Part shown: piece after piece, positions 2,768-28,046 of the stretch
Layout of the letters: the number at the start of each line of letters is the position of its first letter
Numbering within the stretch: position 1 is the first letter of the stretch
NCBI GenBank assembly: GCA_016187385.1
Contig: JACPJU010000001.1
Coordinates: 337,144 to 401,143, forward strand
DNA: 64,000 bases
Reading direction: 5' to 3'
From: Candidatus Aenigmatarchaeota archaeon
GTDB taxonomy: Archaea > Aenigmatarchaeota > Aenigmatarchaeia > CG10238-14 > SCSR01
Notes under the pieces: model-generated
The model's input: only the letters and a program-made list of their open reading frames with translations
Databases searched by the model: none
Told to the model about the DNA's origin: nothing
Program-made: the position numbers and the translations under genes

Positions 2768-3010
2768 ATGGACGAAAACAAAGCCAAGCTTGTAAAAAAA
2801 TACGAGGAAATGCTGAAGAATCCAGACAAGTACAGCGAAGAAGATTTTCAGGAAATAGAGCATCAACTGAGCGAAGATGTCCACGAAGTCTCTGAAGGCT
2901 TGGACATAGAAAGCGAAGAATCCAAGGGCGAGGAAGCGTACCCAGAAATAGAGAAAGAACTGGAGCACGAAGACAACCCGGAGAAGGAAGACGAAGAAGA
3001 GGAAGACTAG
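2768..3010 (+). CDS. Highly acidic hypothetical protein
   Basis: 80 aa, Glu/Asp-rich, ending in DEEEED. The ORF abuts the recombinase stop. Confidence 0.35.
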   Translation: MDENKAKLVKKYEEMLKNPDKYSEEDFQEIEHQLSEDVHEVSEGLDIESEESKGEEAYPEIEKELEHEDNPEKEDEEEED

Positions 3011-8446: not shown

Positions 8447-8904
8447 TTAATGAACACTATTGTAAAGTTCAATACGGCAGCAAAGCTCACCCATATTATG
8501 TATGGTATTAGAAGATAAGCCGCTGTCTTGGAGAATTTCCTGAACTCCATTATCGTCAGCAGAATGACCACCCACAATATTATTATTTCGGCCGACGCTA
8601 ACAGCGGATTCCTCAGACCGAAGAACAGCAATGACCAGAGAAGATTCAATGACAACTGTACGCCGAAGAGATACAACGCCTTCTTGGTGTTTTTCTTGCG
8701 GATATCCCATACGAGATACAGTGATACACCCATCATAATGAACAGTATTGTCCATACAGGAGCGAACATCCAGTTGGGCGGACTGAATGAAGGCTTGTTC
8801 AATGCGGCATACCACGTGTCTATCGACGGAGTTGTGAACACAGAACCGAGAAACCCTACGCCCAAGCAGATCAGAATGGATATTGCAAGTTTTGATATGT
8901 TCAT
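8434..8904 (-). CDS. tspO: TspO/MBR tryptophan-rich sensory protein
   Basis: 156 aa, 5 TM, W-rich conserved blocks (WYAALNKPSFSPPNWMFAPVWTILFIMMGVSLYLVW). Confidence 0.85.
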   Translation of the reverse strand: MNISKLAISILICLGVGFLGSVFTTPSIDTWYAALNKPSFSPPNWMFAPVWTILFIMMGVSLYLVWDIRKKNTKKALYLFGVQLSLNLLWSLLFFGLRNPLLASAEIIILWVVILLTIMEFRKFSKTAAYLLIPYIIWVSFAAVLNFTIVFINYLL

Positions 8905-8975
8905 TATAATAATTCATATCCCATTGTTAAAAATGTTTTTACCGCCATTTTTGAATGTAAAGTATAAGATGTTTA

Positions 8976-10229
8976 GTGGGTTGCATGTGGCTGTTTAACA
9001 TATTTTCCAATAACAAGAAGGCAGAGTCTTCTGAATCTCTCCACAACAAGGAATCTCTCAGAAAAATGCTGGCGTCCAAGAGAGCAGGTATGGAAAAGTC
9101 TTTTGTGGAGGTTGCTCTGTCAAGATACAACGAAATCATAATCATCACGAACGATATGGAAAAGAAACTCGATGCATTCGACAATTCGGATACAGGAAGC
9201 GACAGGATAGACCCGCATCTCCTGCAGGTTCTGATAGGGAACAAGAAAACACTTTCGAAAAAACTGCACGATATATGCGACATATTGAAGGGACCCATGG
9301 GAGACAACAAGAATTCCGTCATCAATTATTTCAACAGTTCTTATTCAATCCTCACGGATGCTGTATCGAGTTCTATAATGAACTACAGGAAGATAGAGGA
9401 CCACTTTGACAAGATTGTGGGTCCCATTGTCAAGGACGTCAATTCGATAATTCCGATCATGGCGTCCTTCAAGAAAGAGGTGGACAATTTTCAAACGAAG
9501 ATAGCCGAGATTGATTCGGTCGAAAATATTCTTGACGAACTCGATTCTCAGGCCTCAAGAAAAGCAGACTTGCAAAATGAGAAATTATCTGCTGGTGGGG
9601 AATTGAGAGAATTGGAAAATGAAAAGTCATCCCTTGAAACCAAATTGGAGAATGCGATTAGTTCAGAAATATACAAAAGATATACCAAACTTATAGATGA
9701 AAAGGAACAGGCAGAAAGAAAACTGGAAGAAAACAAATCCAAGCTCATCAATTTCATATCTCCGCTCGACAAGCCGATGAGAAAATTTCTGAAACTTGCC
9801 GAGGGCGATATCCATCTTAAAAGGATAAAAGACCTCGAAAAATTTATTGAAGACCATGACCTAACGAAAGATAACATCGCATTAATCAAAGAGATTGTAT
9901 ACAAAATGAAACCGGTTGTACATAAATTGGAATTGAAGGAAAACACTGTGAAAAAGGTTGTCAGGAGATTGGAAGAAGGCAATCTCTTGGATGATATCTA
10001 CCAAGAGAAGACGGAAATAATTGAATCTTTGAGATCGATAGAAATGGAAATTTCCGCCAGCACTCCGCGTGAGAAAATCGAGATTGAAGACAGCATAAGC
10101 AGACTGGAGTCTTCCATGAATTCGATTGAAAAAGAATTAAGGACGATTGAAAATGAGATGTCATTGACTGAGAACAGGATAGTTCGGCAAATGCGGATGC
10201 TGGAACCCGCGTTCAAATCTCTTGGTTGA
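8976..10229 (+). CDS. Coiled-coil hypothetical protein
   Basis: 417 aa with long heptad-like Glu/Lys/Leu-rich segments. Confidence 0.45.
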   Translation: MGCMWLFNIFSNNKKAESSESLHNKESLRKMLASKRAGMEKSFVEVALSRYNEIIIITNDMEKKLDAFDNSDTGSDRIDPHLLQVLIGNKKTLSKKLHDICDILKGPMGDNKNSVINYFNSSYSILTDAVSSSIMNYRKIEDHFDKIVGPIVKDVNSIIPIMASFKKEVDNFQTKIAEIDSVENILDELDSQASRKADLQNEKLSAGGELRELENEKSSLETKLENAISSEIYKRYTKLIDEKEQAERKLEENKSKLINFISPLDKPMRKFLKLAEGDIHLKRIKDLEKFIEDHDLTKDNIALIKEIVYKMKPVVHKLELKENTVKKVVRRLEEGNLLDDIYQEKTEIIESLRSIEMEISASTPREKIEIEDSISRLESSMNSIEKELRTIENEMSLTENRIVRQMRMLEPAFKSLG

Positions 10230-12220: not shown

Positions 12221-12841
12221 TTATTTAAACAATTCTTTGATTGTTTTGATTTTAGGTTCGATAATTGCATAATATCTATCGTCATTTCTCTCATATTTAT
12301 TGAAAATTGCGCCTGCAATAAAATCAACGGCTTGTAGGCATCTTTCAGACACCGAATCTTTATGTTCAACTTCTATCTTTACAGTTTTCTTGATAAACTC
12401 GCTTAATTTTCCTTTGATATACTGGTTGTAATCTTCTCTGCTTTCCTTTGAAAGAAACTTGTCCAAAATGACTACTAATTGTCGCTCTTCCGGAGATGTT
12501 ACTATTTTATCCATTAAGAATCCAGTGATGTAATTGTAAATTTTGTTTCTATGATCCTTTAGGTAGTCATACACGCGGTGTTTTTTCAATATTATTCCGT
12601 GAATTTCTATGTCCTTTGAACTGATGCACCCCAAGAGATACTTTCTGACGGCATCATCTGATTTGTTGAACTTCAGTTCCGGCACGTCCCTGAGTTTTCT
12701 TTTCAATTTAGTATTTCTCGTACGTTTGACACAGTTTTCTATTTGCTTTTCGTTTTTCGCTATGAGTAAGCCTATAACAAAGTATTTGGAACTCTTTTGT
12801 GTAAACCCAAGATCCCCAGATTCATCTAAAAATATCCTCAT
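12221..12841 (-). CDS. DUF3800 domain protein
   Basis: The N-terminus MRIFLDESGDLG matches the DUF3800 start signature. It lies in a defence-like neighbourhood. Confidence 0.65.
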   Translation of the reverse strand: MRIFLDESGDLGFTQKSSKYFVIGLLIAKNEKQIENCVKRTRNTKLKRKLRDVPELKFNKSDDAVRKYLLGCISSKDIEIHGIILKKHRVYDYLKDHRNKIYNYITGFLMDKIVTSPEERQLVVILDKFLSKESREDYNQYIKGKLSEFIKKTVKIEVEHKDSVSERCLQAVDFIAGAIFNKYERNDDRYYAIIEPKIKTIKELFK

Positions 12842-13107
12842 AATTTTATATAGACTGGTTAATTATTCTCTTTTTAAGGTGGTTTGTACCGATTGCGGAT
12901 TCTGCACATCCTTGTTCTTCTCCATCATCTCCCTTATCGCAACCAGCTCCGAGTGTATCAAAGCCAGTGACTGGAGGATGTCGTAGAAATAATCGGTCTG
13001 TGTGTTGGTTTCCATGATCAGATCGATCGTTTGGGAGGATATAAAGGTTGATGGTCTTAGTCTCACAAGAGTTTGATTAATTTTAAGGTTATCTAGCCAA
13101 GTATATT

Positions 13108-15750
13108 TTGATGCATCTTACGAAAGAAGAAGCCAAACTTAAAATCAGAGACCTTGTTCAGAATTATTACAATAACAAGGACAAATTGAGTAAAGACAGT
13201 GAAACCGATACAAGAGTAAAATTTATTGACAGGATGTTTGAAGCTTTGGGATGGGATGTTTTTGGTAGCACTGTATCAGACGAGGTTTTACGTGAAGTAG
13301 GAATACAAGAGAAAGAAGGCAGAAAGAAAAAGGCCGACTACACCTTCAAGATAAACGGCATATCAAGATTCGTAGTAGAAGCAAAGAGCATGGGTGAAAG
13401 TGTTTTCGATCCAGTGTTCATTGTTCAGGCTATTAATTATGCATACAACAAGGCATGCTCTTGGGCCGTGTTGACTAACTTTCACAAACTTGCGATTTAT
13501 TATATTGACAGAAATGTGAACACACCATTTTACAAAATCGATTTTGGCGATATGTCAGCCTTTGATCAGAATTTCGAAATACTATGGTATCTCTCGAAAG
13601 AAAATGTAATTAATAATCTCCTCGAAACAGAAGCGAAAAGAAGAGGACTGAAGAGCGACAAAGTTCCGATAGACAAACAACTTCTGAATGACTTAAAGAT
13701 ATGGAGAGGGCTTTTGTCAAATGACATCAGAAAAAGGTACAAAGATTATGAATCCTACGTGATTGACGAGATAGTCCAGAGGATAATTGATAGGTTAATT
13801 TTCATCAGAAAAACTGAAGACGGGAAGCTGGAAGAACCAAAGCTCGACCAGATAATCAGAAGGCACAATGACAACACCTACGGTGAGATAAAGAAACTTT
13901 TTGCCGAATATAGGGATAAATACGACAGCAAATTATTCGAAGAAGATAGAAAAACACTTCATGAATCCGATAAGATTGAGATATCAAATGATGCCATTGA
14001 AAGTGTGGTTCGTGGCATGTATAGAACAAGAAATATTGACATAGAATACGATTTCTCTGCAATAGATTCGGATATACTTGGAAATATCTACGAACAGTAT
14101 CTCGCTTACGTGCTTTCGCAGACCGAGAAAAAAGTTAAATTGAAAGGCGGTATTTCACATAGGAAGGAACAAGGGATATATTACACACCGACTTACATTG
14201 TAGACTACATCGTGAAAAATACTTTGGGTGAAACCCTTAAGAAAATGAAATTGAAGGATGTAAATAAATTAAGAGTGTTGGATCCGGCATGCGGTTCCGG
14301 TAGTTTCCTAATCAAAGCTTTCGATGTTTTGAACGATTATTATGCAAGAAGTGATGAGAACTATCAGCAGACGAAATTGGATTTGTCTAATGGAACAACA
14401 TTCAGCAAAAAGGTGGATATTATAACAAATAATATTTTCGGTGTTGATTTAGACCCAAAGGCGGTTGAAATCTCACAACTGAACTTATTGTTGAAGATTG
14501 CTGAAAGAGGACAGCGATTGCCAGTATTACAGAAGAATATCAAATGTGGCAACAGTTTAATTGATGATGAATCATTGGCTGGAGACAGAGCATTCAAATG
14601 GGGCATAGAGTTTTCGGATATAACCAAGAATGGTGGATTCGATGTTATTATAGGTAATCCACCTTACGGAGCTGAGCTTAGCGAAGAAGAACAAAATTAT
14701 TTAGATAAATTCTATGACATAGGGTCCACGGATACATCTATTCTTTTCATTAAAAGATCGTTCGAACTTTTAAGAGAAAATGGTAAATTAGCATTTATCG
14801 TTCCGAAAGCGTTATGCTTTGCATCTAATTATGAGGACATTAGAAATTTTATTTGGAATAATTTAGAAACAATAGTAGATTGTGGTAAGGTATGGAAAGA
14901 AGTAAAGTTAGAACAAGTCATATTCATACTTTCTAAAGGTAAAAAATTAGAACAGTATAATTCTTGCCGATTAAGAAATAGTAAAATAGAATATATTGGT
15001 AAAATCAACAAAAGTGATTCAAAACAGTTTGAATTTTTCTTGAATGGTGTTTCATCAAATGATGTAGAATTAGCTAAGAAAATCAAGTCAAAATCTATTA
15101 TGCTCAATGATATCTCAACTAATCAAAGGGGTGCTATGTTACAAAAATTTGTTTCTAAAAAAGGAAGTTTAGAAGTTATCGGCGGTGCACAAATACAAAG
15201 ATTCGGGGTTGTTGGAGTAAAAGGAAAGATAGAACCATCACGCATAGATTCCGAGCAAGCTTATGTAAAAAGCAATTCATTGTTGGTACAGAATATAGTA
15301 GCCCATATAGAAAATCCTACAGACCATATTAAAATAATAGCGTACATTCCTCAAAAGAATTATGTAATTTTAGATACTATCAATCAATTATCTATAAATA
15401 AGGAATACTCACAGAAACTTATTTGGTGCTTCCTAAATTCCAAGCTAATAAATTGGTATGCGTATAGATTTATTTTCGGCAAGGCAATAAGGACGATGCA
15501 TTTTGATAATTCGGTTACATCTCGTTTACCTATTCCTAAAGAAACCAACAGAAAAGTATTGGACGAAATTATCAGCCTATCCAACAAAATACTTTTGTTA
15601 AGCAAACGTTTGAATGAAATTAATACAAAAACAGACGAAATCCAAAAATTGGAAGAGAGCATATGCAAAATACAAAAGAATATAGATTACAAAATTTACG
15701 AACTTTATGGCTTGACTAAAGAAGAAATTGAAATTGTAGAAAACTCTTAA
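13108..15750 (+). CDS. Type IIG restriction-modification enzyme (MmeI-like: N-terminal PD-(D/E)xK endonuclease + gamma-class N6-adenine methyltransferase + TRD)
   Basis: 880 aa. An N-terminal Mrr/HsdR_N-like nuclease (D...VVEAKS) is followed by MTase motifs GIYYTPTYIVDYI, VLDPACGSGSFL (motif I) and VIIGNPPYG (motif IV, NPPY), then a C-terminal target-recognition region. Confidence 0.8.
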   Translation: MMHLTKEEAKLKIRDLVQNYYNNKDKLSKDSETDTRVKFIDRMFEALGWDVFGSTVSDEVLREVGIQEKEGRKKKADYTFKINGISRFVVEAKSMGESVFDPVFIVQAINYAYNKACSWAVLTNFHKLAIYYIDRNVNTPFYKIDFGDMSAFDQNFEILWYLSKENVINNLLETEAKRRGLKSDKVPIDKQLLNDLKIWRGLLSNDIRKRYKDYESYVIDEIVQRIIDRLIFIRKTEDGKLEEPKLDQIIRRHNDNTYGEIKKLFAEYRDKYDSKLFEEDRKTLHESDKIEISNDAIESVVRGMYRTRNIDIEYDFSAIDSDILGNIYEQYLAYVLSQTEKKVKLKGGISHRKEQGIYYTPTYIVDYIVKNTLGETLKKMKLKDVNKLRVLDPACGSGSFLIKAFDVLNDYYARSDENYQQTKLDLSNGTTFSKKVDIITNNIFGVDLDPKAVEISQLNLLLKIAERGQRLPVLQKNIKCGNSLIDDESLAGDRAFKWGIEFSDITKNGGFDVIIGNPPYGAELSEEEQNYLDKFYDIGSTDTSILFIKRSFELLRENGKLAFIVPKALCFASNYEDIRNFIWNNLETIVDCGKVWKEVKLEQVIFILSKGKKLEQYNSCRLRNSKIEYIGKINKSDSKQFEFFLNGVSSNDVELAKKIKSKSIMLNDISTNQRGAMLQKFVSKKGSLEVIGGAQIQRFGVVGVKGKIEPSRIDSEQAYVKSNSLLVQNIVAHIENPTDHIKIIAYIPQKNYVILDTINQLSINKEYSQKLIWCFLNSKLINWYAYRFIFGKAIRTMHFDNSVTSRLPIPKETNRKVLDEIISLSNKILLLSKRLNEINTKTDEIQKLEESICKIQKNIDYKIYELYGLTKEEIEIVENS

Positions 15751-15814
15751 ATATTTTATCACAAAATGGGCAACTTAGTTCTTCGTATTGACCCGACATT
15801 TTTATCAAATAATC

Positions 15815-16429
15815 TCATATTATATAAAGTTTAGTAGAAAAGTCAGCTTCAAAGGTTTCTAAAACACGTTTTTCATTATCTGTTATATTACATTGTTCAC
15901 TTGACTCTTGAAAGAAAAACAGTATAGATTTCTGAAATATTCCAAGTAAAACAGAAAAACTAGCCTTTGTGAGTGCATTTCTTATTTGACTTCCCTTATA
16001 CCCATGATCAAGTTCTATAGCCACTTTAAGCTTATCATCAAAAATAAAAGCAGCATCAGGATTCATAGGCGATTTGAAAAACTGTATACTCCTGAAACTT
16101 TCGGGTATTCGGTTGATACCCTCAACAAAAATATAGTTTCTAGCTATATCTTCTTTAACCCGAAAATCCTCACAGAACCATTTTATAACAAATTTAAAGA
16201 ATCTGTTTCTCAGTTCTGTGTCCCAAGCACCATTTTTAACACCGTCTTTCATAAGATTATCTATTGATTTTATTCTGTCTGGAATAGAATTAATGAAATT
16301 TTCAAACTGTTCATATGAAATAGAATTGTTTTCTTCGGGTTCATATTGATCTGGCATAGTACTATTTATGTAAATCATTATAAAAAAATGGATTATGGCA
16401 AAACAAAGATTGCATGTAAGAACAAGCAA
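15815..16429 (-). CDS. Hypothetical protein
   Basis: 204-aa ORF. The true start is probably the internal Met (MIYINSTMPDQ). Confidence 0.4.
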   Translation of the reverse strand: MLVLTCNLCFAIIHFFIMIYINSTMPDQYEPEENNSISYEQFENFINSIPDRIKSIDNLMKDGVKNGAWDTELRNRFFKFVIKWFCEDFRVKEDIARNYIFVEGINRIPESFRSIQFFKSPMNPDAAFIFDDKLKVAIELDHGYKGSQIRNALTKASFSVLLGIFQKSILFFFQESSEQCNITDNEKRVLETFEADFSTKLYII

Positions 16430-16706
16430 ATATGGAATAAGATTTTATGCGGGTGGGAGAAGGATAGGATTGAAAGTTAAAAATAGAAACTCATTTTTAC
16501 AAGCTGGTTTTGGTCGATATGGACCTTATGCGGCTATGGGAGTAAGACATAAAGGTACATTTGCTGGTGGAAGTGTAGGCACTCTCGGAAAAAAAGTTTG
16601 GGTCGGTCATTATGGCAATAAGTTTAGTGGTTCTATTAATCATAATCTTTCTTCAGGGAGAACTGGTGGAAGACTAAGGGTTAAAAAATTGAAATTTAGG
16701 TTTTGA
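16395..16706 (+). CDS. Glycine-rich basic hypothetical protein
   Basis: 103 aa, rich in Gly/Arg/Lys (GGRRIGLKVKNR...GGSVGTLGKK). Confidence 0.3.
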   Translation: MAKQRLHVRTSKYGIRFYAGGRRIGLKVKNRNSFLQAGFGRYGPYAAMGVRHKGTFAGGSVGTLGKKVWVGHYGNKFSGSINHNLSSGRTGGRLRVKKLKFRF

Positions 16707-16805
16707 CTAACTCTCAAACTTCTTTCTGAAACATTTCAAAATGAAGAAACAGATTTATATCTGTAAAGTACATGTCTTAGTATCCGGAAGTAATCGAATT
16801 ATGAA

Positions 16806-17054
16806 GTGACTTCAATGAAAATTGCTAAAACAGCTCCAGATGCACTAAAGGTTTTATGGGAAGATAAGTTTTTTGTCACTTATAGAAGCCAAAAAGAAAC
16901 AGAGGGTGAATTAACCAAAAGAGAATATAACTTTGGGGATGCCTTACGCAAAGCTTTAGTAGGATCCAAATTTTTATTAGTAACCGGGTCTAAAGGCGAG
17001 AGAAGGTTTATACAAAAATATCCCTATGTAATCGAGGAGAAGCCAGATGAATGA
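16806..17054 (+). CDS. Hypothetical protein (gene 1 of a 3-gene overlapping cassette)
   Basis: 82-aa ORF whose stop overlaps the next start (ATGA, translational coupling). Confidence 0.4.
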   Translation: MTSMKIAKTAPDALKVLWEDKFFVTYRSQKETEGELTKREYNFGDALRKALVGSKFLLVTGSKGERRFIQKYPYVIEEKPDE

Positions 17055-17499
17055 AAAAATACAAAAATCAATAGAAAAAGCAAAAGAAGTAGTTGAGGGG
17101 ATGAAGCTTGAAGAACCCTATAAATCTCTAACTTATTCCAAACTCCTAGAAAAATTCCTTATGGAGGAAGACACATTAATAAAACATCCAAATGTTTCTC
17201 AAGCAGGTCAGATATCATTTGTACAACTTGTTAATAAAATTAAACCTAAAAATAATCATGAAAAAGTTATTTCTATAGGGTATCATTTAATAAAAAATGA
17301 AGGACGAAATTTTTCATATGAAGATATAGATAAATTTTATATGAAAGTTGCTTGGAAACGTCATGTAAATCCAAGTGAGCTTATTCGACAATTAAAACAA
17401 AAAGGTTTTGTAGAAGAATCCGAAAATAAAGAAACCGGTAAAAAAGAATTTAGAATCTTAGAGGACAGTATAAATTTAGTTGAAGAAAGATTAGAATGA
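17047..17499 (+). CDS. Hypothetical protein (gene 2 of the cassette), possible C-terminal wHTH
   Basis: 150 aa. Start and stop overlap both neighbours. Confidence 0.45.
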   Translation: MNEKIQKSIEKAKEVVEGMKLEEPYKSLTYSKLLEKFLMEEDTLIKHPNVSQAGQISFVQLVNKIKPKNNHEKVISIGYHLIKNEGRNFSYEDIDKFYMKVAWKRHVNPSELIRQLKQKGFVEESENKETGKKEFRILEDSINLVEERLE

Positions 17500-18233
17500 A
17501 AACATATTCAGAACTATTAAGAACAGATTTGGAAAATTTAAGAAACATTTTAAAGCAACGTAAAAAATATCCATCGAATAGCTCGTACAAGGAAAGAGAG
17601 CGTAGTGTTAAGTTAGAATTGGATAAAGATACAAAGTCTCTATTGAAATTCTTGAATACCAATTATTCTAGACAATTCTTGGAAGAAAAAAGTAAATTAA
17701 CTGACACGCTCAATAATTTATTGAGCAGTGGGGATATAGATGAGAGATTCGGCAAAATAGATGAAACATTTTCATTATTGAACAGTCTTGATGTAGAAGT
17801 AGGGCCGTTAATAACCGAATCAAGTTTTGAAATACCAGAAATTCCTAATATAGAAGTAAAGCTCGATGTAGAAGAAGCCAAAATGAATCTCAATAATAAT
17901 TCGTTTGTATCTAGTTTAGTAATGTCCAGGAGAGCATATGAAGGAGCTTTATTAGAACTATTTAAAAAAATCGAAGGAAGAGATCCTATAGAACTCAAAT
18001 GTGAAAAATGTGGCAGAGGAGGTTATATGGGTATTATTAAGCTACACAATTGGGCACTTGAAAAAAGGTTTGTTAATGAGAAACTTAAATCTCTAGGATA
18101 TTTAATAAGCGATTTAGGAGCAGGTGGTGCACATCCACCGTTACAAGATTTTCCACGCGATAAGGGCATAGCAAGAGCATCGTTAGCAGCTTTGCTTGCA
18201 GTCCTAGACTTTATATATAAAAAATCCGAATGA
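17496..18233 (+). CDS. Hypothetical protein (gene 3 of the cassette) with CxxC and a Gly-rich C-terminal motif
   Basis: 245 aa, containing KCEKCGRGG and LISDLGAGGAHPP. No confident family assignment. Confidence 0.45.
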   Translation: MKTYSELLRTDLENLRNILKQRKKYPSNSSYKERERSVKLELDKDTKSLLKFLNTNYSRQFLEEKSKLTDTLNNLLSSGDIDERFGKIDETFSLLNSLDVEVGPLITESSFEIPEIPNIEVKLDVEEAKMNLNNNSFVSSLVMSRRAYEGALLELFKKIEGRDPIELKCEKCGRGGYMGIIKLHNWALEKRFVNEKLKSLGYLISDLGAGGAHPPLQDFPRDKGIARASLAALLAVLDFIYKKSE

Positions 18234-18544
18234 GACACAAGAGATAACTAATATTTTCTCTAATGCGGTCACACGATTTAGGCGACTACATTTCATAATG
18301 TTTGTGGTCACCTTAGGAAGTTTCTCAATTCTCTATATTCTTTCATAATTAGAGTAATCATAGGTCGTATGTTTCTATTGTTTTGGTATGATTTCAAAGC
18401 TTTGTAATAGCTTCTTCTACGCTTGAATTCTATGTTAACCGGCGGTAATTTGTGTTTAGTCAGTACATTGTTAAACCATATCATCAGTAAGTACTTAGGT
18501 ACTTAAGTACAAAAGTATTTAAGTGCACTTTCTCAAATAGAATT

Positions 18545-18853
18545 ATGGCAATCTTAAAAGTCAACATTTCCAGCGAACTGGAGAAAAGGTTCAGGGAGAC
18601 TGCTATGAAAAAATACGGTTATGTCAGAGGTGCATTGAGTTTAGCCGCGCAAAAAGCGTTAGAACATTGGACATATGAAGAATTCAGCAGGGAAAAGGCC
18701 AAAGAAATTGCTAAAAAACACACCAAGGATCCTGTAGATGAGATAGAGGGTTTATTATCACACGTAAAAGGCAAGACTTCAGTGGAATTACAGCATGAGG
18801 CTGGTAGGTACAGAACAGAAATGGCATTAAGCTATTTGAAAAAAAGAAAATAG
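18545..18853 (+). CDS. VapB-like antitoxin
   Basis: 102 aa, immediately upstream of and abutting a PIN gene. It is homologous to the 19910..20155 product (ELEKRFRETAMKKYGYVRGALS vs VEERFRKLAGATYGRHKGYLG). Confidence 0.55.
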   Translation: MAILKVNISSELEKRFRETAMKKYGYVRGALSLAAQKALEHWTYEEFSREKAKEIAKKHTKDPVDEIEGLLSHVKGKTSVELQHEAGRYRTEMALSYLKKRK

Positions 18854-19282
18854 GTGACAATCTTGTACTTTATAGATACAAACATTTTTCTAGAAGTGGA
18901 ATTAAAACAAAAAAGAGTCGAAGAAAGCAAAGAATTTCTAAGGAAGGTATTAACCGGGGATATAAAAGCTTTTACAAGCGATTTTAATTTGGACTCTGTA
19001 GCTATTGTCATGAATGCAAAGAAATGCAGGCCTCAAGACATAATTAATTTTTTGTTAAAAATAATGAGTTACGAAGGTTTAACCATTTACTCATTAAATA
19101 TGCTTGATAGATTAGTGGCTGCCAAATATATGCGAGATTACAAGTTAACATTTGACGATGCAGTGACTTATTTCGTTACAAAAAGTCTTGGTATTAATGA
19201 ACTGGTATCTTTCGATTCGAAAGATTTCAAAGGACTGCCAGGAATAAAAACACTGGATCCTATCGATGTTTTGAAGAGGTGA
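18854..19282 (+). CDS. vapC: PIN-domain ribonuclease toxin (VapC)
   Basis: 142 aa with the N-terminal YFIDTNIFLE PIN signature and conserved acidic residues. Confidence 0.75.
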   Translation: MTILYFIDTNIFLEVELKQKRVEESKEFLRKVLTGDIKAFTSDFNLDSVAIVMNAKKCRPQDIINFLLKIMSYEGLTIYSLNMLDRLVAAKYMRDYKLTFDDAVTYFVTKSLGINELVSFDSKDFKGLPGIKTLDPIDVLKR

Positions 19283-19286
19283 GTGA

Positions 19287-19418
19287 ATGAAAAGAAGATT
19301 AACAAAAGAAGAGGTTAGAAAGGAAATCGAGAAGGTAGAAAGAATAGCGAAGATGGTCGGCAAGAAAATGCCTAAAGGAAAGACTTCAGTAGATGTAATC
19401 AGAGAGCAGAGAAGATAG
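19287..19418 (+). CDS. Small basic protein (43 aa)
   Basis: Not in the ORF track. The strong SD GAGGTGA sits 4 nt upstream of the ATG, which overlaps the vapC stop. Translation is MKRRLTKEEVRKEIEKVERIAKMVGKKMPKGKTSVDVIREQRR. Confidence 0.3.
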   Translation: MKRRLTKEEVRKEIEKVERIAKMVGKKMPKGKTSVDVIREQRR

Positions 19419-19479
19419 AAAGTGAGAGTTCAGGAACGACTATCATTCATTTTCTTCATCTTTATTATTTCCCGGTTTT

Positions 19480-19920
19480 TTAGAATTTTTCTTTAAAAGG
19501 ATTCACAACTTTTATTCCAGGAATTTTCTTAAAGTCCTTCTCATTCTCTGTGTATATAGTTTCTATGCCATTTTCTTTCATAGTTTCGGCTATCAAAGAA
19601 TCCCAAAATTCAGTTTTGTTTACTTTTGAAGTAGACATTGCAGACTTTACTGTACCTTCCGTATAGTTTATTCTGATCCAGTTAGAAGATTCTACAAATT
19701 TATCAACCAGGCTTTCAGCAACTTCTTTCGAAAGAGGTATTTTCATTTTAGTAGTAAGCACAGAAAATAATTCAGCCAAAACTTGGTTAGATATAACACC
19801 TTTAGATTCACCACTAAAAACATTTTCAACTAGTGATTTGCATATGTTTCCCTTTTCTGTTTCAGATTCGTCGTAAGCATAGACAAGAATTGTGGTGTCG
19901 TAGAATAGTTCATCGTTCAT
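19480..19920 (-). CDS. vapC: PIN-domain ribonuclease toxin (VapC)
   Basis: 146 aa with the N-terminal YDTTILVYAYD PIN signature. Confidence 0.75.
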   Translation of the reverse strand: MNDELFYDTTILVYAYDESETEKGNICKSLVENVFSGESKGVISNQVLAELFSVLTTKMKIPLSKEVAESLVDKFVESSNWIRINYTEGTVKSAMSTSKVNKTEFWDSLIAETMKENGIETIYTENEKDFKKIPGIKVVNPFKEKF

Positions 19921-20155
19921 GCCATTCGCTTCTGTTCTTAGTTAACAATTTCCCCATTTTGAATCCTTTTCTCAACATTTCCAAAGCCCTCGCATTTACA
20001 TCAGTCGTTTTTTTCTTTTTCTCCCATTCTATCATGGCTTCTGTCACAGCTTTGCCCAAGTATCCCTTGTGTCTGCCGTAAGTCGCGCCAGCCAGTTTCC
20101 TGAATCTTTCTTCTACATCTTCTTGAACGCTTATCGTGATGACTTTGGTTTTCAT
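19910..20155 (-). CDS. VapB-like antitoxin
   Basis: 81 aa. Its stop overlaps the downstream PIN gene start, and it is a homologue of the 18545 antitoxin. Confidence 0.55.
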   Translation of the reverse strand: MKTKVITISVQEDVEERFRKLAGATYGRHKGYLGKAVTEAMIEWEKKKKTTDVNARALEMLRKGFKMGKLLTKNRSEWHER

Positions 20156-20230
20156 AATATCTATTTACATCTTCGAGTATTTAAATATATCATTATCTAT
20201 TTAGATTTGTCACACGTGTGACACGAAACA

Positions 20231-20260
20231 GAAAGCGAGAGTTAGAAAGAGATTTAAAAT
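20231..20260 (+). promoter_or_regulatory. Conserved promoter cassette copy 1 (GCGAGAGTTAGAAAGAGATTTAAAA; BRE/TATA 'AGATTTAAA')
   Basis: The TATA-like TTTAAA at 20253-20258 lies exactly 23 nt upstream of the ATG at 20281. The same arrangement recurs at three more genes. Confidence 0.55.
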
Positions 20261-20280
20261 CAACTAGCATACTATTTAAA

Positions 20281-20964
20281 ATGGCCGAATACATACGAGG
20301 AAACTGGAAAACTAATGAAGTTACGATAGATGGCAAACGATTACCACTACAAGAAAGTCTGATGTTTGTAAATATCAGTCCTGCAGGATTTAGTTGGGGT
20401 TATGGTGGAGCCGGTCCAAGCCAATTAGCTTTTGCAATACTCGCCAGATACACAAGTCATGAATTGGCTGGGGCGTATTATAGTGATTTTAAAAATGATG
20501 TAATAGCTAAACTCCCAAAATCAGATTTTGAATTACCAGTAGATGAAGTTAGAAGATGGTTAGATAGTAGAACAGATGAACAGAGAATAAATGCGAATAG
20601 ACGTGCCAAAAATCTGTCTTATGGAATTTCACTTATGCCCAACGATTTGGACGGGCTTTATCATTATGATGCTCATTGGAACGAAAGAGGTGCACTTGTA
20701 TTCTTAGATGTGCCGATTGTGGTAGATGCAGAAAGAAGTGATGAAAGAATAATAATTACTGCGGATGCAGAGTTGAGAACTTATTTAGGTAGACTAAAGG
20801 GGACTGGGGCAAGATTACCGATGCCTAAAAGAAGGAAAGGGCTTCGGGATTTCATTTCTTTTCCTGTAAACCCTAGAAATCTCAGACCGTTGCGGCCTGA
20901 AGAATCTTATTCAGAAGATCCGCATGCAGAATATGTCTGTATGGATAAAGAAGATGAAGTTTAG
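20281..20964 (+). CDS. Hypothetical protein
   Basis: The track ORF 20218..20964 contains the promoter cassette. The start is re-assigned to the ATG at 20281 (MAEYIRGNWK...), which is 23 nt after the TATA, implying a leaderless mRNA. Confidence 0.5.
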   Translation: MAEYIRGNWKTNEVTIDGKRLPLQESLMFVNISPAGFSWGYGGAGPSQLAFAILARYTSHELAGAYYSDFKNDVIAKLPKSDFELPVDEVRRWLDSRTDEQRINANRRAKNLSYGISLMPNDLDGLYHYDAHWNERGALVFLDVPIVVDAERSDERIIITADAELRTYLGRLKGTGARLPMPKRRKGLRDFISFPVNPRNLRPLRPEESYSEDPHAEYVCMDKEDEV

Positions 20965-20978
20965 AAAGAGATTTAAAG
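20961..20978 (+). promoter_or_regulatory. Conserved promoter cassette copy 2 (TTAGAAAGAGATTTAAAG)
   Basis: TTTAAA at 20972-20977 lies 23 nt upstream of the ATG at 21000. Confidence 0.55.
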
Positions 20979-20999
20979 ATTATCGTCTTCTAATGGATT

Positions 21000-21203
21000 A
21001 TGCTCAATTGGCTTTATAGACTTTATGGAGATTTTGGCCGGTTTTCCCCCTACAAAATATTGCGAAATCCTCGTTATGCATACATTTACAACCGAGGCTT
21101 TCGAGATAGGCACGTACCTTACAAACAAGACGGCATCGGGAGTAACTATTTGCCCTCTTACCAATACAAAAAACAGACAATGGATAACTATACGCAGAAA
21201 TAA
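21000..21203 (+). CDS. Small hypothetical protein (67 aa)
   Basis: Supported by its own copy of the conserved promoter plus the conserved TAATGRATTATG start context. Confidence 0.4.
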   Translation: MLNWLYRLYGDFGRFSPYKILRNPRYAYIYNRGFRDRHVPYKQDGIGSNYLPSYQYKKQTMDNYTQK

Positions 21204-21214
21204 CCCAAACGAAA

Positions 21215-21233
21215 TTTAGAAGAGATTTAAAGG
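21215..21233 (+). promoter_or_regulatory. Conserved promoter cassette copy 3 (TTTAGAAGAGATTTAAAGG)
   Basis: TTTAAA at 21226-21231 lies 23 nt upstream of the ATG at 21254. Confidence 0.55.
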
Positions 21234-21253
21234 TTACTTTCCTTTAATGAATT

Positions 21254-21865
21254 ATGATGTCTAATGGACGAGACCGCGGACAATCAATTGACGAAATAAT
21301 GGAAAGAATGAGAGAGGATATGTACTCCGTAGTTGACAAATACGTGGAAGAATTAAGAGAAAGAGCGTTATCCTCATTACCGACTACAACGGATGTCCGT
21401 GAAAAGAGATTAAAAGAATTAAAAGTGAAGACGCCCGAAAGTCCCTCTGAAAAAAGTCAAAAAGTCTTAGACATAGTCGAAAGATATAATATTGGGGATA
21501 GATTTACTACTAGTGAATTTAGCGACAAGTTTTTCGCTCAGTACGGTTCCATCTCTGGCTTATTACCAGTTCTTTCTTCCCATAAAAATGAATTTGGACT
21601 CGAGTACGATTCACAAACAAAGTTATGGACAAAAGTCAGAAAATATCAAAAACCTAAAATGATGAGTGAAGACCTAGATTCGGACCGTAAAGTCCTTTTC
21701 GCTATTTCAGAGTATCCTGTGGGAGCTGTCTTTAGCGTCGATGAATTATCAGAAGCTACTGGATATGGAACGAAAAGTATCAGAGCTTATTTAAGGCGAC
21801 CGAAGGAAAGAATGGAAATTTTAGGAATTAAAGAAGAAGGAGACAGATACGCAAAAGTCAATTAA
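21254..21865 (+). CDS. Hypothetical protein
   Basis: 203-aa ORF with the conserved promoter upstream. Confidence 0.5.
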   Translation: MMSNGRDRGQSIDEIMERMREDMYSVVDKYVEELRERALSSLPTTTDVREKRLKELKVKTPESPSEKSQKVLDIVERYNIGDRFTTSEFSDKFFAQYGSISGLLPVLSSHKNEFGLEYDSQTKLWTKVRKYQKPKMMSEDLDSDRKVLFAISEYPVGAVFSVDELSEATGYGTKSIRAYLRRPKERMEILGIKEEGDRYAKVN

Positions 21866-21929: not shown

Positions 21930-21963
21930 TTAGAAAGTGAGAGTTTTTGGAATAGATTTAAAG
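21930..21963 (+). promoter_or_regulatory. Conserved promoter cassette copy 4, long form (TTAGAAAGTGAGAGTTTTTGGAATAGATTTAAAG)
   Basis: TTTAAA at 21957-21962 lies 23 nt upstream of the ATG at 21985. It also carries the GAAAGTGAGAGTT box, which recurs at 19417 and in the 22.9-23.3 kb array. Confidence 0.55.
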
Positions 21964-21984
21964 ATTAACGGTTAGTTAAGATTT

Positions 21985-22485
21985 ATGTCTGATAAATTCT
22001 ATGTACCTTACAGGAGTGTCGATGGACAACTGCAGCCATCACAAATAACAACTGATATTTCTTTGGTGGAAGAACTTCTTCAATCAGGACAAACAGACGG
22101 CTACATTATTGGATATCAAGTACCAAAAAAGGTGACCAATATTTTCAATGCATCCATATATGATCTCCCATGGGCTGAAGTAAATCCTAAACACCCACAC
22201 CAGACCTATCGTGCAGCCCACGCTTTCACGCGATTTTTACGTAATCTAAAGTCTCCAGATAGAATCACTACGAATATGATGAGGAACGGTCGCAAGCATG
22301 GTGTAACAGTCGGAGAAGTATGGGAATTATTTACTTATCATGCGGGAGGAGATGAAGAATTAAACATACGAAATTATAATAAAGGTAGTCTTGAGATGAC
22401 ATACAATGCCTTTCGCCAGGCGGGTTTGGAGTTACCCGAAGTTAAGCTTGCAAAAGGTGAAATTAAATGGCGACAATATACATAA
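21985..22485 (+). CDS. Hypothetical protein
   Basis: 166-aa ORF with the conserved promoter upstream. Confidence 0.5.
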   Translation: MSDKFYVPYRSVDGQLQPSQITTDISLVEELLQSGQTDGYIIGYQVPKKVTNIFNASIYDLPWAEVNPKHPHQTYRAAHAFTRFLRNLKSPDRITTNMMRNGRKHGVTVGEVWELFTYHAGGDEELNIRNYNKGSLEMTYNAFRQAGLELPEVKLAKGEIKWRQYT

Positions 22486-27920: not shown

Positions 27921-28046
27921 TTATCTGCTTCTCTTGCGTTTCTTCCTGCAATCCTTGCACAGCCACAGGTAACCGGTCTTGAATAGTTTACCGACAGTTT
28001 TGACATTGCCCTTGCAACCATCACAGTTAATGTGAATAATACCCAC
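27921..28046 (-). CDS. Possible small zinc-ribbon protein (41 aa, GTG start)
   Basis: Translation is (M)GIIHINCDGCKGNVKTVGKLFKTGYLWLCKDCRKKRKRSR. It overlaps the 3' end of the LAGLIDADG gene. Low confidence. Confidence 0.2.
   Translation of the reverse strand: MGIIHINCDGCKGNVKTVGKLFKTGYLWLCKDCRKKRKRSR

Follow-up and report, generated by a model that had tools for sequence, protein, structure and literature searches.

Gene content of the island

The window, that is, the whole 64,000-nucleotide stretch of DNA that was analysed, comes from a Ca. Aenigmarchaeota genome. Positions 12221-20155 are a low-GC stretch that carries a DUF3800 gene, a Type IIG enzyme, a tightly coupled cassette and two VapBC pairs. 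All the ORFs listed for this stretch were found at their coordinates, and its features are as follows.

12221-12841, minus strand: DUF3800 protein, 206 aa
13108-15750, plus strand: single-chain Type IIG restriction-methylation enzyme, 880 aa
15815-16357, minus strand: hypothetical protein HYW24_02275, 180 aa
16395-16706, plus strand: hypothetical Gly/Arg-rich protein HYW24_02280, 103 aa (from the ORF listing)
16815-17054, plus strand: cassette gene 1, predicted small winged-helix (wHTH) protein, 79 aa
17047-17499, plus strand: cassette gene 2, partner protein, 150 aa
17496-17849, plus strand: gene 3, N-terminal four-helix domain, residues 1-118
17850-18233, plus strand: gene 3, predicted C-terminal HEPN-fold/DUF4145-like domain, residues 119-245
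18000-18011, plus strand: CxxC of gene 3, C169-E-K-C172
18114-18140, plus strand: Gly-rich loop LGAGGAHPP of gene 3 (207-215), with His213
18545-18853, plus strand: VapB-like antitoxin, 102 aa, RHH-like N-terminus
18854-19282, plus strand: PIN-domain toxin, VapC-like, 142 aa
19287-19418, plus strand: 43-aa ORF between the two PIN genes (from translation)
19480-19920, minus strand: PIN-domain toxin, VapC-like, 146 aa
19910-20155, minus strand: VapB-like antitoxin, 81 aa

An earlier, sequence-only reading had taken this stretch for an island of defence and addiction genes, and this view was upheld by the intact Type IIG restriction-modification (RM) enzyme, the DUF3800 gene and the two VapBC pairs, in DNA with a GC content of 0.337 against 0.385 for the whole window. 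The DUF3800 gene is present as claimed (Pfam PF12686, E=4.2e-16; phrog_9243, E=2.1e-21). The 880-aa enzyme combines an N-terminal PD-(D/E)xK nuclease, a gamma-class N6-adenine methyltransferase and a TaqI_C-like target-recognition region. It matched Eco57I (4.5e-35), N6_Mtase (2.6e-26), MmeI_Mtase (8.2e-12) and HSDR_N (2.9e-07) over the Pfam cut-offs and the PADLOC model REase_MTase_IIG with E=4.2e-103; its TaqI_C match (E=5.7e-04, 20.6 bits) lies under the cut-off of 26.5. When the enzyme was checked for inactivation, its ORF proved uninterrupted and free of internal stops, with the nuclease and methyltransferase motifs kept (D77-x13-E91-A-K93, DPACGSG at 392, NPPY at 517).

The two hypothetical genes that follow gave no family match in Pfam, NCBIfam, PADLOC or PHROG scans. 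HYW24_02275, whose identical 180-aa product is 'hypothetical' in NCBI, is annotated from 16357, so that an overlap with 16395-16706 is not necessary. It carries a FDDKLKVAIELDHG stretch that, by eye, might recall a Vsr/REase-type motif. HYW24_02280 is a singleton cluster in a collection of 15 billion proteins.

The two convergent PIN/VapBC pairs (18545-20155) were confirmed by Pfam PIN matches of the 142-aa (E=6.8e-10) and 146-aa (E=3.9e-09) toxins, the C-terminus of the latter being similar to the former (E=9e-07). In the first pair the antitoxin stop codon ends at 18853 and the PIN gene starts at 18854; in the second the two genes overlap by 11 nt. The 102-aa antitoxin had no Pfam match, and the 81-aa antitoxin belongs to a cluster of five members. 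The homology of the two antitoxins to each other was confirmed (30% identity over 40 aa, pairwise E=1e-06), although the word 'clearly' that had been used for it is generous. A peptide identical or nearly identical to the 43-aa ORF product is called on other metagenome contigs; by eye, its KGKTSVDV looks similar to KGKTSVEL in the 102-aa antitoxin. Outside the cassette, the island is ordinary.

The cassette and its two upstream genes

The cassette (16815-18233) consists of three tightly coupled genes. Gene 1 had been given a GTG start at 16806; this was replaced by ATG 16815 as the most likely start, which yields the 79-aa protein of the NCBI record. ATGA overlaps had been reported at both junctions: the one between genes 2 and 3 is there (4 nt), but genes 1 and 2 overlap by 8 nt (ATGAATGA).

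The AF2 model of gene 1 (pLDDT 79) has the topology H-b-H-H-b-b, and its best Foldseek PDB matches are winged-helix proteins (STIV F93, SSV1 F-93, BlaI/MecI, Fur and FoxP3; prob 0.8-0.99). The profile of the gene 1 family, which counts 55 proteins, matched AspA (0.0031) and BlaI (0.011) in the PDB. By model and profile, gene 1 is a winged-helix protein.

Gene 2 has an N-terminal helix with a 'EEPYKSLTYSKLLEKFL' motif and a C-terminal domain of a family that we call cluster C, and it clusters with partners of gene 3 relatives in six other loci (L001, L014, L036, L041, L042 and L044). Only two direct homologues were found; they share the N-terminal motif of gene 2 but carry a gene-1-type wHTH. 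Comparison of gene 2 with the gene 1 family by hhalign was not significant. The protein is a member of a third small partner family and may have a wHTH-like pattern.

Relatives of the cassette and their neighbourhoods

Relatives of gene 3 are rare (136 among 1.84 billion representatives) and occupy 32 non-redundant loci, every one of which is archaeal where an organism name is given. At least one small partner was present in all 28 loci having enough upstream sequence, mostly with overlaps or gaps of 0-11 nt. A gene-1-type partner lies upstream in 17 of these 28, mostly directly adjacent, and gene-2-type (cluster-C) partners occur in ten; the partners are drawn from at least five families, others of which match TrmB, HTH_24, MarR and Crp HTH models. 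Other cassettes have different terminal genes (REase-like in L017/L050, an RSKRGLVH-motif protein in L019), and in three fusions (L051_224, L053_230 and L022_214) a gene-1-type wHTH is joined to a canonical DUF4145 domain. The order of the three genes in the window was found in no other locus. Conservation as a unit therefore stands as far as tight coupling with a partner is concerned but not for a fixed trio, since the partners vary. On these comparisons the cassette is a conserved module of small winged-helix DNA-binding protein(s) and a divergent HEPN/DUF4145-type protein, and the family of operons to which it belongs is small and apparently archaeal.

It could be argued that the three genes are unrelated neighbours or spurious ORFs with no joint function, since AT-rich DNA (the cassette has a GC content of 0.318) yields many long ORFs and gene 2 is almost without direct homologues. 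However, gene 3 and gene 1 each represent a conserved family in which residues are invariant or strongly constrained, which makes the observation more than chance. Adjacency and start/stop overlaps recur across dozens of independent contigs, gene-1-type and DUF4145 domains are fused in other loci, and the NCBI record has calls for all three genes. For practical purposes, conservation and fusion refute this explanation, and we find it hardly credible.

In agreement with the proposed co-occurrence near RM genes, DNA methyltransferases were the commonest neighbours of gene 3 relatives, in raw counts and in DPANN genomes that are RM-rich. The top Pfam families among 150 neighbour ORFs, as raw counts, were N6_N4_Mtase (5), N6_Mtase (4), Eco57I (3), Methylase_S (2) and HsdM_N (2), and PADLOC assigned mad2 (9) and MTase_II (6). 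A Type I RM operon holds the L004 cassette between hsdR and hsdS, with DUF3800 and hsdM downstream, and in L027 and L029 a methyltransferase abuts the stop codon of gene 3; in the window, about 1 kb with two ORFs separates the cassette from the RM gene. About one third of the related loci (for example L001, L010, L012 and L020) have housekeeping genes around them and no recognisable defence gene close by.

About 8 kb upstream of the island, a tyrosine integrase (3007-3933, E=1.9e-26) and a Cas4-like nuclease are encoded; the 12-24 kb region is low in GC, and promoter-like elements are repeated at 20-22 kb. These features would suit genes for the maintenance or regulation of an integrated mobile element (provirus or integrative plasmid), whose winged helices would be repressors or partition-type DNA binders of the AspA/F-93 kind, with gene 3 as a non-defence accessory; the best matches of gene 1 do include F-93 proteins from archaeal viruses and AspA, a plasmid partition protein. 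Those similarities, however, are weak and generic to the winged-helix fold, a search for an att-type direct repeat found none, and related cassettes lie in many chromosomal contexts without integrases. Gene 3 relatives were absent from the IMG/VR viral contigs, PLSDB plasmids and GenBank phages searched, and so show no direct link to mobile elements. We consider a mobile-element origin of this kind quite improbable.

Fold and conserved residues of gene 3

The gene 3 protein of the window had no match in Pfam, NCBIfam, PADLOC or PHROG and lies under every Pfam threshold. The statement that the cassette proteins have no assignable domains thus holds for direct HMM scans only, as profile, transitive and fold evidence places both gene 3 and gene 1. 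In the AF2 model of gene 3 (pLDDT 86.5), four N-terminal helices (4-24, 29-56, 62-76 and 81-102) precede a C-terminal domain whose best Foldseek PDB matches are HEPN proteins (1ufb, 2q00, 7ae8, 7bxo, 1o3u and 2hsb), with prob 0.97-1.0, target-normalised TM up to 0.72 and weak E values (0.1-1). The same N-terminal domain precedes canonical DUF4145 in distant relatives (profile positions about 8-168). PF13643 (DUF4145) was matched weakly by 9 of 17 gene 3 homologues, while P0130, a relative from the gene 3 family profile (E=6e-07), reached 28.3 bits against DUF4145, with a gathering cut-off of 23.1, and the PDB chain 'Dandelion-hepn' matched the wider gene 3 profile at 1.4e-04. As modelled, gene 3 is a divergent HEPN/DUF4145-type protein with a helical N-terminal domain.

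The two motifs noticed earlier in gene 3 are present. The CxxC, of which C169 and C172 are kept in 70 of 71 family members, sits at the tip of a beta-hairpin (strands 165-167 and 175-177) that is inserted in the HEPN domain and may bind metal. The Gly-rich loop occupies the position of the HEPN Rx4-6H motif, a register confirmed against Rx4H relatives and 'Dandelion-hepn'. H213 is found in 70 of 70 members, and H213, R145 and E149 are near-invariant over 76, R145...E149 being the DUF4145 helix-1 signature. G208 stands where 'VRxHSVH' relatives have their Arg and is also aligned with 'RHLSAH' of 'Dandelion-hepn', and position 205 (H-8, the equivalent of RAZR R146; PMC13017515) is S, A, P or T. 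The HEPN catalytic Arg is thus missing at both candidate positions (205 and 208) in nearly all members, which makes RNase activity doubtful; with Gly208 and Ser205 in its place in the window protein, any catalysis must use other residues.

According to the HEPN survey, domains of such an Arg-less kind may be non-catalytic (PMC3710099), and a non-catalytic role of gene 3 in RNA or nucleotide binding is possible. The cassette might then be a regulatory module, in which a catalytically dead HEPN-like binder and the winged helices control neighbours, such as the adjacent RM system (as a controller) or the island genes, without killing or growth arrest. The lack of the motif Arg favours this, as do the Arg-less families PaREP1/HEPN-T, c2405 and MtlR, for some of which non-catalytic RNA binding was proposed (PMC3710099). 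PaREP1-type 2q00 is among the best fold matches of gene 3, and its DNA-binding partners have the winged helix that is typical of transcription factors. Small HTH controller proteins are also common in RM systems. On the other hand, His213, Arg145, Glu149, the Gly-rich loop and the CxxC are as strictly kept as an active site. The partner families also pair with other terminal genes, one of them REase-like, for which interchangeable effectors are a better fit than a regulator, and the cassette is found also far from any RM gene. Purely regulatory function appears unlikely to us.

Comparison with known systems

DUF4145 (PF13643) is one of the HEPN superfamily branches covered in the survey of Anantharaman et al. 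2013 (PMC3710099). It is a divergent HEPN RNase and the effector in RAZR/PD-T7-4 (PMC13017515), and it was implicated in BxaP (PMC10799925) and Ishtar (bioRxiv 10.64898/2026.07.06.735840). Gene 3 shares with it the four-helix HEPN core with the helix-1 R...E pair, the invariant His with a loop and the last helix after it, and the frequent linkage to RM operons; HTH-type and Zn-binding fusions occur in the wider family. It departs from the [RK]xxG.xxxH / Rx4-6H pattern of DUF4145 in its replaced basic residue and GAGGAHPP loop, and also in its sub-threshold Pfam scores, its CxxC beta-hairpin between helices and its dedicated N-terminal four-helix domain. All gene 3 sequences that carry an organism name come from archaea, whereas DUF4145 is found mostly in bacteria.

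With RAZR/PD-T7-4, gene 3 has in common a DUF4145-type HEPN domain, a Cys-containing element and a defence-island context, and the His equivalent to RAZR H154 is conserved. RAZR, however, is encoded by one gene and detects phage ring proteins through a Cys4 zinc ribbon at its N-terminus (PMC13017515), while gene 3 has a helical N-terminus, only two Cys, inside the HEPN domain, no equivalent of R146, separate winged-helix partner genes and no PADLOC match. HEPN-RM coupling and its paradigm PrrC have been described, PrrC being an RM-embedded HEPN anticodon nuclease that is guarded by a Type I RM enzyme and provides a second line of defence (PMC3710099). The presence of a HEPN-fold gene inside or next to RM operons, as in L004, likewise suggests a back-up role on restriction failure. 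Unlike PrrC, gene 3 has neither an ABC-ATPase domain nor the catalytic Arg and has winged-helix partners, and the RM enzyme of the window is Type IIG and stands apart from the cassette.

Type II toxin-antitoxin pairs (HEPN-MNT; AbiEi-like wHTH antitoxins) resemble the cassette in the small DNA-binding gene(s) directly upstream of a HEPN-fold gene, the overlapping stop and start codons and the scattered, island-associated distribution; however, the cassette has no MNT nucleotidyltransferase partner, and, where such pairs have one antitoxin, an operon of this family can hold as many as four paralogous winged-helix genes. The likeness to PaREP1/HEPN-T (PDB 2q00) is at fold level: these proteins are archaeal, with a HEPN fold, a conserved His and no Arg, but they are about 120 aa long and have neither the N-terminal domain nor the CxxC, and they stand in tandem arrays or together with MNT/REase genes. 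As the folds of gene 3 and gene 1 are assignable to HEPN/DUF4145 and winged helix, the system is a form of a known class, and its description as uncharacterised was not borne out in full.

Proposed mode of action

Since the module usually lies beside RM genes, it is probably an undescribed form of known nuclease-based defence or toxin module. The best reading, which we would put at about an even chance, is an RM-associated HEPN effector of toxin or abortive-infection type under the control of winged-helix partners. In such operons gene 3 would share a transcript with one to four small DNA-binding partners and be translationally coupled to them, and the operons would lie preferentially beside or inside RM systems. 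Gene 3 would be the effector-type component, as its predicted HEPN four-helix core, with R145...E149 in helix 1 and the invariant His213, indicates. It may act as a dimer with a composite site, like other HEPN proteins, and its conserved CxxC hairpin may bind a metal or contribute to a dimer contact. Gene-1-type winged helices are physically linked to effectors of the gene 3 kind, because they are fused to canonical DUF4145 in three other loci. Gene 1 could bind and silence gene 3, as an antitoxin or autorepressor comparable to those of type II toxin-antitoxin pairs, or alternatively bring a nucleic-acid signal to it. The RM neighbourhood and the PrrC, RAZR and BxaP precedents suggest that the module would serve either as a back-up, growth-arresting defence or as the island's addiction module, and that it would most likely target RNA.

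Composition and setting of the island

The cassette belongs to a Candidatus Aenigmarchaeota (DPANN) MAG, on a contig of 786 kb, and lies in a region that the sequence-only reading had described as a defence island. ORF calling found all of the ORFs listed in that reading.

Features of the island and its upstream flank (window positions)
3007-3933, minus strand: tyrosine integrase (Phage_integrase, E=1.9e-26; the Archaeal phage integrase model also matches), ~8 kb upstream of the island
3967-4596, minus strand: Cas4-like PD-(D/E)xK nuclease, adjoining the tyrosine recombinase gene
12221-12841: DUF3800 protein
13108-15750: 880-aa restriction-methylation (RM) enzyme
15815-16357, minus strand: 180-aa hypothetical, annotated from 16357 in the NCBI record
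16395-16706, plus strand: hypothetical
16815-17054, plus strand: cassette gene 1, 79 aa (NCBI HYW24_02285, hypothetical protein)
17047-17499, plus strand: cassette gene 2, 150 aa (HYW24_02290, hypothetical protein)
17496-18233, plus strand: cassette gene 3, 245 aa (HYW24_02295, hypothetical protein)
18545-20155: two VapBC pairs

The DUF3800, restriction and VapBC parts are ordinary and a matter of routine annotation. The DUF3800 protein matched PF12686 (E=4.2e-16, 60.4 bits against a gathering cut-off of 21). The 880-aa ORF, proposed earlier as an MmeI-like single-chain enzyme, was confirmed as Type IIG (Eco57I/MmeI-like) by PADLOC (REase_MTase_IIG, E=4.2e-103) and by Pfam matches over cut-off to Eco57I (4.5e-35), N6_Mtase (2.6e-26), MmeI_Mtase (8.2e-12) and HSDR_N (2.9e-07), TaqI_C, the target-recognition region, being sub-threshold (5.7e-04, 20.6 bits against 26.5). 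It carries D77-x13-E91-A-K93, DPACGSG (392) and NPPY (517), that is, a PD-(D/E)xK nuclease and N6A methyltransferase motifs I and IV in one polypeptide, as in the definition of Type IIG. Inactivating mutations were looked for; the reading frame is unbroken, both sets of motifs are intact and the sequence gives no sign of inactivation. The two PIN/VapBC pairs are convergent as described (PIN E=6.8e-10 and 3.9e-09), with small antitoxin ORFs upstream, one abutting its PIN gene and the other overlapping it by 11 nt. The antitoxins are mutually homologous (30% identity across 40 residues, E=1e-06), and neither has a Pfam match.

The GC content of the island interval is 0.337 versus 0.385 for the whole window, and the island was probably acquired horizontally. 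The upstream integrase and Cas4-like nuclease and the low GC of the 12-24 kb region suggest that it may be the cargo of an integrated element. Scans of the window found neither a tRNA gene nor an att-like direct repeat flanking the island.

Gene 3 belongs to a small family with a probable HEPN-like fold

The three cassette proteins had been described as having no assignable domains. This held for direct scans with Pfam, PADLOC, NCBIfam and PHROGs, which returned nothing usable for any of them, but not for family-based and structural comparison, in which gene 3 was HEPN/DUF4145-like and gene 1 a winged helix. The gene 3 family is small: a word-indexed search of 5.8 billion proteins gave 17 relatives, and an exhaustive HMMER search of 1.84 billion representatives with the family profile gave 136 (E<=1e-3), of which 25 reached E<=1e-30. 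In the family alignment the N-terminal half is helical and variable and the C-terminal half very conserved, the conserved positions being S139, V142, R145-R146-x-Y-E-G-A-L152, P164, C169-x2-C172, G179, H184, W186, D206-x-G-A-G210 and H213. Both motifs noticed earlier, the CxxC and the Gly-rich GAGGAHPP, are present and strictly conserved. The idea that the cassette consists of chance ORFs is refuted by this conservation, and we give it a probability close to nil.

The AlphaFold2 model of gene 3, built from the family alignment (pLDDT 86.5), has four helices in residues 1-118 followed by a helical bundle (119-244) in which the CxxC is carried on a beta-hairpin. The best domain-sized Foldseek matches in the PDB were HEPN proteins (1ufb, 2q00, 7ae8, 7bxo, 1o3u, 1wol and 2hsb), with probabilities of 0.97-1.0 and target-normalised TM scores of 0.5-0.72 but E-values of only 0.1-1. 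The four-helix up-and-down core of the HEPN fold is thus found in the model and in its matches.

Gene 3 itself did not match the DUF4145 profile PF13643 (gathering score 23.1 bits) at E<=1. Weak matches were obtained for 9 of its 17 close homologues (best 0.0023), and P0130, a distant relative that the family profile of gene 3 picked up at 6e-07 (profile positions 5-221), scored 28.3 bits, above the cut-off. Judged from these profiles, the link to PF13643 appears to be transitive only, through the homologues and P0130. Searched against PDB sequences, the family profile gave coiled-coil noise only, and a wider profile gave one weak HEPN match, the chain Dandelion-hepn (1.4e-04). We conclude that the fold of gene 3 is very probably HEPN/DUF4145-derived. 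The HEPN superfamily is known to include DUF4145 as a divergent branch (PMC3710099), and DUF4145 is the RNase effector of RAZR/PD-T7-4 (PMC13017515).

A conserved site without the motif arginine

Alignment with relatives that keep the canonical motif, and with Dandelion-hepn, places His213 on the HEPN histidine. The Arg of "VRxHSVH" in the relatives and of "RHLSAH" in Dandelion-hepn aligns with Gly208 (H-5). At H-8, where RAZR has Arg146 (motif R146/H154; PMC13017515), gene 3 has Ser205 and several relatives have Lys. The Rx4-6H motif (R-x7-H in DUF4145/RAZR) therefore fails in gene 3, in which the His is kept and Arg is absent at both H-5 and H-8.

Residue conservation was counted over 76 unique family members. 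H213 was found in 70/70, R145 in 72/74, E149 in 74/74, C169 and C172 in 70/71, H184 in 69/74 and W186 in 74/74, while position 205 is S, A, P or T, with K in only 7/76, and position 208 is Gly. The family thus retains the DUF4145 helix-1 signature (R145/E149) and the His, without the motif Arg at 205 or 208. The extreme conservation of the GAGGAHPP...FPRD loop and of the CxxC points to a functional site; a C2H2 zinc site formed by C169, C172, H184 and H213 was considered and is a candidate only. Families without the Arg (PaREP1/HEPN-T, c2405) are noted in a survey of HEPN proteins, where some are suggested to be non-catalytic RNA binders (PMC3710099). We put the chance that gene 3 would be an active RNase at clearly less than even.

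Genes 1 and 2

An ATGA overlap had been reported at both cassette junctions. It is there between genes 2 and 3 (4 nt), whereas genes 1 and 2 share an 8-nt ATGAATGA overlap; the start of gene 1 is probably the ATG at 16815. Gene 1 founds a family of 55 small proteins and is predicted to be a winged helix, its AlphaFold2 model (pLDDT 79) having the topology H-b-H-H-b-b. The fold matched STIV F93, SSV1 F-93, BlaI/MecI, Fur, PadR and forkhead domains, and the family profile gave weak matches in the PDB to AspA (0.0031) and BlaI (0.011). The F-93/AspA-like fold, like the integrase upstream of the island, would fit a cassette made of the housekeeping genes of an integrated element, an explanation that we consider quite improbable given that no relatives of gene 3 were found in the viral and plasmid collections IMG/VR, PLSDB and INPHARED.

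Gene 2 has only two direct homologues, with which it shares an N-terminal "EEPYKSLTYSKLLEKFL" helix; the C-terminus of these homologues is a gene-1-type winged helix. The C-terminal domain of gene 2 itself clusters with small partner proteins that accompany relatives of gene 3 in six other loci (cluster C, the gene-2-type partner family). Direct comparison of gene 2 with the gene 1 family by hhalign gave a probability of 4.5%, and a profile search of gene 2 against the PDB gave no match. Other partner families in related cassettes match TrmB, HTH_24, MarR_2, IclR and Crp HTH models.

Conservation of the cassette in other genomes

Contexts collected from exact-protein look-ups, GTDB species representatives and JGI metagenomes gave 32 non-redundant gene 3 loci. 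All gene 3 sequences that bear an organism name are archaeal, from Aenigmarchaeota, Woesearchaeota, Nanoarchaeia, Micrarchaeia, ainarchaeum, Nitrosarchaeum, Nitrosotalea and other Thaumarchaeota. Conservation of the three genes as a unit had been set as a test. Where 400 nt or more of upstream sequence was available (28 loci), gene 3 was always accompanied by at least one small partner, drawn from five recurrent families. Two of the 28, L014 and L041, are counted on cluster-C partners that overlap a gene 3 ORF called in extended form. The exact set of three genes is not conserved. In most loci the nearest partner overlaps gene 3 or lies within about 11 nt of it. Among the 28 loci a gene-1-type winged helix is present in 17 and the gene 2 family in 10; the two types are combined only in the window and the group of locus L001, the latter with a different order. 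The arrangement of a short winged-helix gene, a variable protein of 117-166 aa and a terminal gene (the gene 3 position) is also seen in L013, L018, L020 and L022, the middle proteins not being homologous to one another. More distant proteins (239-326 aa) that have only the C-terminal gene-3-like domain occur in L046 (8001-8294), L047, L048 and L049, with a cluster-C partner immediately downstream, not upstream, as a rearranged version of the module.

The strongest evidence that genes 1 and 3 work together physically is a gene fusion. The terminal proteins of L051, L053 and L022 (224, 230 and 214 aa) begin with a gene-1-type winged helix, which is joined in one chain to a canonical DUF4145 domain carrying KFLGD[TA][AS]AH (8.4e-05 for the L022 protein), and the L053 protein is 49% identical to the neighbouring gene 1 homologue (E=1.3e-12). 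The terminal gene can also be exchanged: in L017 and L050 these partner families are followed by a 269-aa protein with a REase-like D...EFK pattern, and in L019, a partner-only locus (no gene 3 family member) of a Methanobacteriota MAG, by a 252-aa protein with an RSKRGLVH motif. A constant partner set with interchangeable terminal genes is typical of defence and toxin systems. Such exchange, and the active-site-like conservation of gene 3, speak against a non-catalytic HEPN-like protein that regulates neighbouring genes together with transcription-factor partners. The missing motif Arg favours that role, which we nevertheless regard as unlikely.

Neighbourhoods of gene 3 relatives

Neighbouring genes were surveyed in 24 loci, the window not among them: 150 ORFs of 100 aa or longer, each no more than 6 kb from a gene 3 relative. 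The commonest Pfam families were N6_N4_Mtase (5), N6_Mtase (4), Eco57I (3), Methylase_S (2) and HsdM_N (2), and PADLOC gave nine mad2-type and six MTase_II assignments. Methyltransferase motifs lie near gene 3 relatives in L004, L007, L011, L013 (two), L027, L029 and L032, and in L027 and L029 no gap separates the methyltransferase gene from the stop codon of gene 3, which it abuts or overlaps. The expected co-occurrence with RM genes was therefore seen, DNA methyltransferases and RM subunits being the commonest recognised neighbours in what is a descriptive count with no genomic background. A TIR protein lies upstream in L006 and, by eye, a Fic-like neighbour in L015; in L001, L010, L012 and L020 the cassette relatives stand among housekeeping genes. 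In L020 (Ca. ainarchaeum) the gene directly downstream of the cassette (7758-9260, plus strand) encodes a 500-aa protein with no Pfam match, in which a zinc-ribbon-like N-terminal CxxC...CxxC and a REase-like C-terminal "LEIDTLAW...VIETK" can be seen by eye.

In L004 (GCA_964519215.1, 3151-12496) the cassette is embedded in a Type I RM operon between hsdR and hsdS. The order is hsdR, an MNT-type nucleotidyltransferase, an IS200/REP-tyrosine-transposase-like gene, two partners (135 and 107 aa), the gene 3 relative, hsdS, DUF3800 and hsdM. DUF3800, the cassette and an RM system thus co-occur in two independent loci, L004 and the window. L004 is the one locus with bacterial-looking neighbours, and an RlpA-like (DPBB+SPOR) gene flanking it suggests a bacterial host, that is, transfer across domains.

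Relation to known systems and possible mechanism

Judged from sequence and modelled fold, the cassette would work like, and appears to be related to, the HEPN/DUF4145 effectors. Membership of RAZR/PD-T7-4 was rejected: RAZR has an N-terminal Cys4 zinc ribbon, whereas gene 3 is modelled as helical over residues 1-118 and has only two conserved Cys, inside the HEPN domain. Gene 3 had no PADLOC match, and searches of the PDB by sequence and by fold did not return a RAZR chain. A PrrC-type assignment was rejected as well, gene 3 having no ABC-type NTPase domain. PrrC sits in a Type I hsdMSR operon; Type I embedding of the cassette was seen only in L004, and the RM neighbour in the window is a Type IIG enzyme ~1 kb away. 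With the motif Arg missing and the defining N-terminal domains absent, we did not file the cassette under either system. It resembles Type II toxin-antitoxin systems in that small genes, among them the winged-helix gene 1, adjoin gene 3 and are translationally coupled with it (8-nt and 4-nt overlaps in the window).

Overall, we regard the case for an RM-associated HEPN effector (a toxin for back-up defence or addiction) with winged-helix partners as evenly balanced. Gene 3 would dimerise as other HEPN proteins do, with H213, R145 and E149 at the centre of the site that it forms. Its winged-helix partners would bind it and either silence it, as antitoxin or autorepressor, or make it responsive to a nucleic-acid cue. 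The module might then arrest growth or degrade RNA once the neighbouring restriction system is overwhelmed, or stabilise the island by addiction. Precedents are PrrC, which is guarded by a Type I RM enzyme (PMC3710099), BxaP, which lies next to BREX (PMC10799925), RAZR (PMC13017515) and Ishtar (bioRxiv 10.64898/2026.07.06.735840).

More tentatively, and with a probability clearly short of even, the cassette may stand for a family of modular immune or addiction systems, RM-associated and centred on archaea, that has so far gone undescribed, with arrays of small paralogous winged-helix proteins as nucleic-acid sensors or antitoxins and interchangeable terminal effectors (several HEPN subtypes and a REase-like protein). 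The effector in the window would then be a HEPN derivative with a Gly-rich GAGGAH loop in place of the catalytic Arg and a CxxC knuckle gained. If true, the classical Rx4-6H RNase site would have given way to a novel catalytic arrangement or to a switch controlled by a ligand or metal.

Defence and addiction systems are poorly charted in DPANN and ammonia-oxidising archaea, and the cassette now has a testable identity, a HEPN/DUF4145-derivative effector with a winged-helix partner tied to this effector class by gene fusion. An active gene 3 would extend the "RM plus HEPN back-up" logic of PrrC and of the DUF4145 effectors RAZR, BxaP and Ishtar to archaea and would show a HEPN site working without its Arg; an inactive one would illustrate how a HEPN domain can be recruited to a regulatory role. 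As it appears from these comparisons, a conserved archaeal module of winged helix and HEPN with an Arg-less, Gly-rich, CxxC-bearing site is worth testing, and is not categorically new.

Other observations in the window

The two hypotheticals upstream of the cassette had no usable match in direct HMM scans of Pfam, PADLOC, NCBIfam and PHROGs. By eye, a "PDAAFIFDDKLKVAIELDHG" stretch in the 180-aa protein is like the D...(I/V)E(L/V)D core of Vsr/DUF559-type endonucleases, a resemblance with no HMM support. Comparison of a 58-aa ORF (18308-18484) with a Fic protein gave no similarity, and a relation to Fic was rejected. Between the convergent PIN genes lies a 43-aa ORF (MKRRLTKEEVRKEIEKVERIAKMVGKKMPKGKTSVDVIREQRR; 19287-19418, plus strand) that is absent from the NCBI annotation, though gene calls on other metagenome contigs include the same or nearly the same peptide. 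Given the likeness of KGKTSVDV in this ORF to KGKTSVEL in the 102-aa antitoxin, it may encode an orphan peptide of antitoxin type.

The second VapBC pair is directly followed by a gene for a DUF6166 protein (20218-20964, plus strand, E=1.8e-22). A repeated element of ~40 nt containing AGAGATTTAAAG and ending at ATG (20944-21002, 21214-21256 and 21945-21987) precedes three consecutive genes, 21000-21203 (a 67-aa ORF), 21254-21865 and 21985-22485, and the 5' end of the DUF6166 gene has a partial copy (20225-20258). The element has the look of an archaeal BRE/TATA promoter plus short leader that has been reiterated. No operator-like repeat was found 5' of gene 1, and a sigma-70/terminator scan stayed at background level, these being bacterial models that are not applicable to an archaeon.

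Elsewhere in the window, a free-standing LAGLIDADG homing-endonuclease-like ORF (28027-28836, minus strand, E=1.5e-16) adjoins a methionine-aminopeptidase-type gene, and within a 1259-aa ORF (39090-42869, minus strand) the GC content falls from 0.45 to 0.31.
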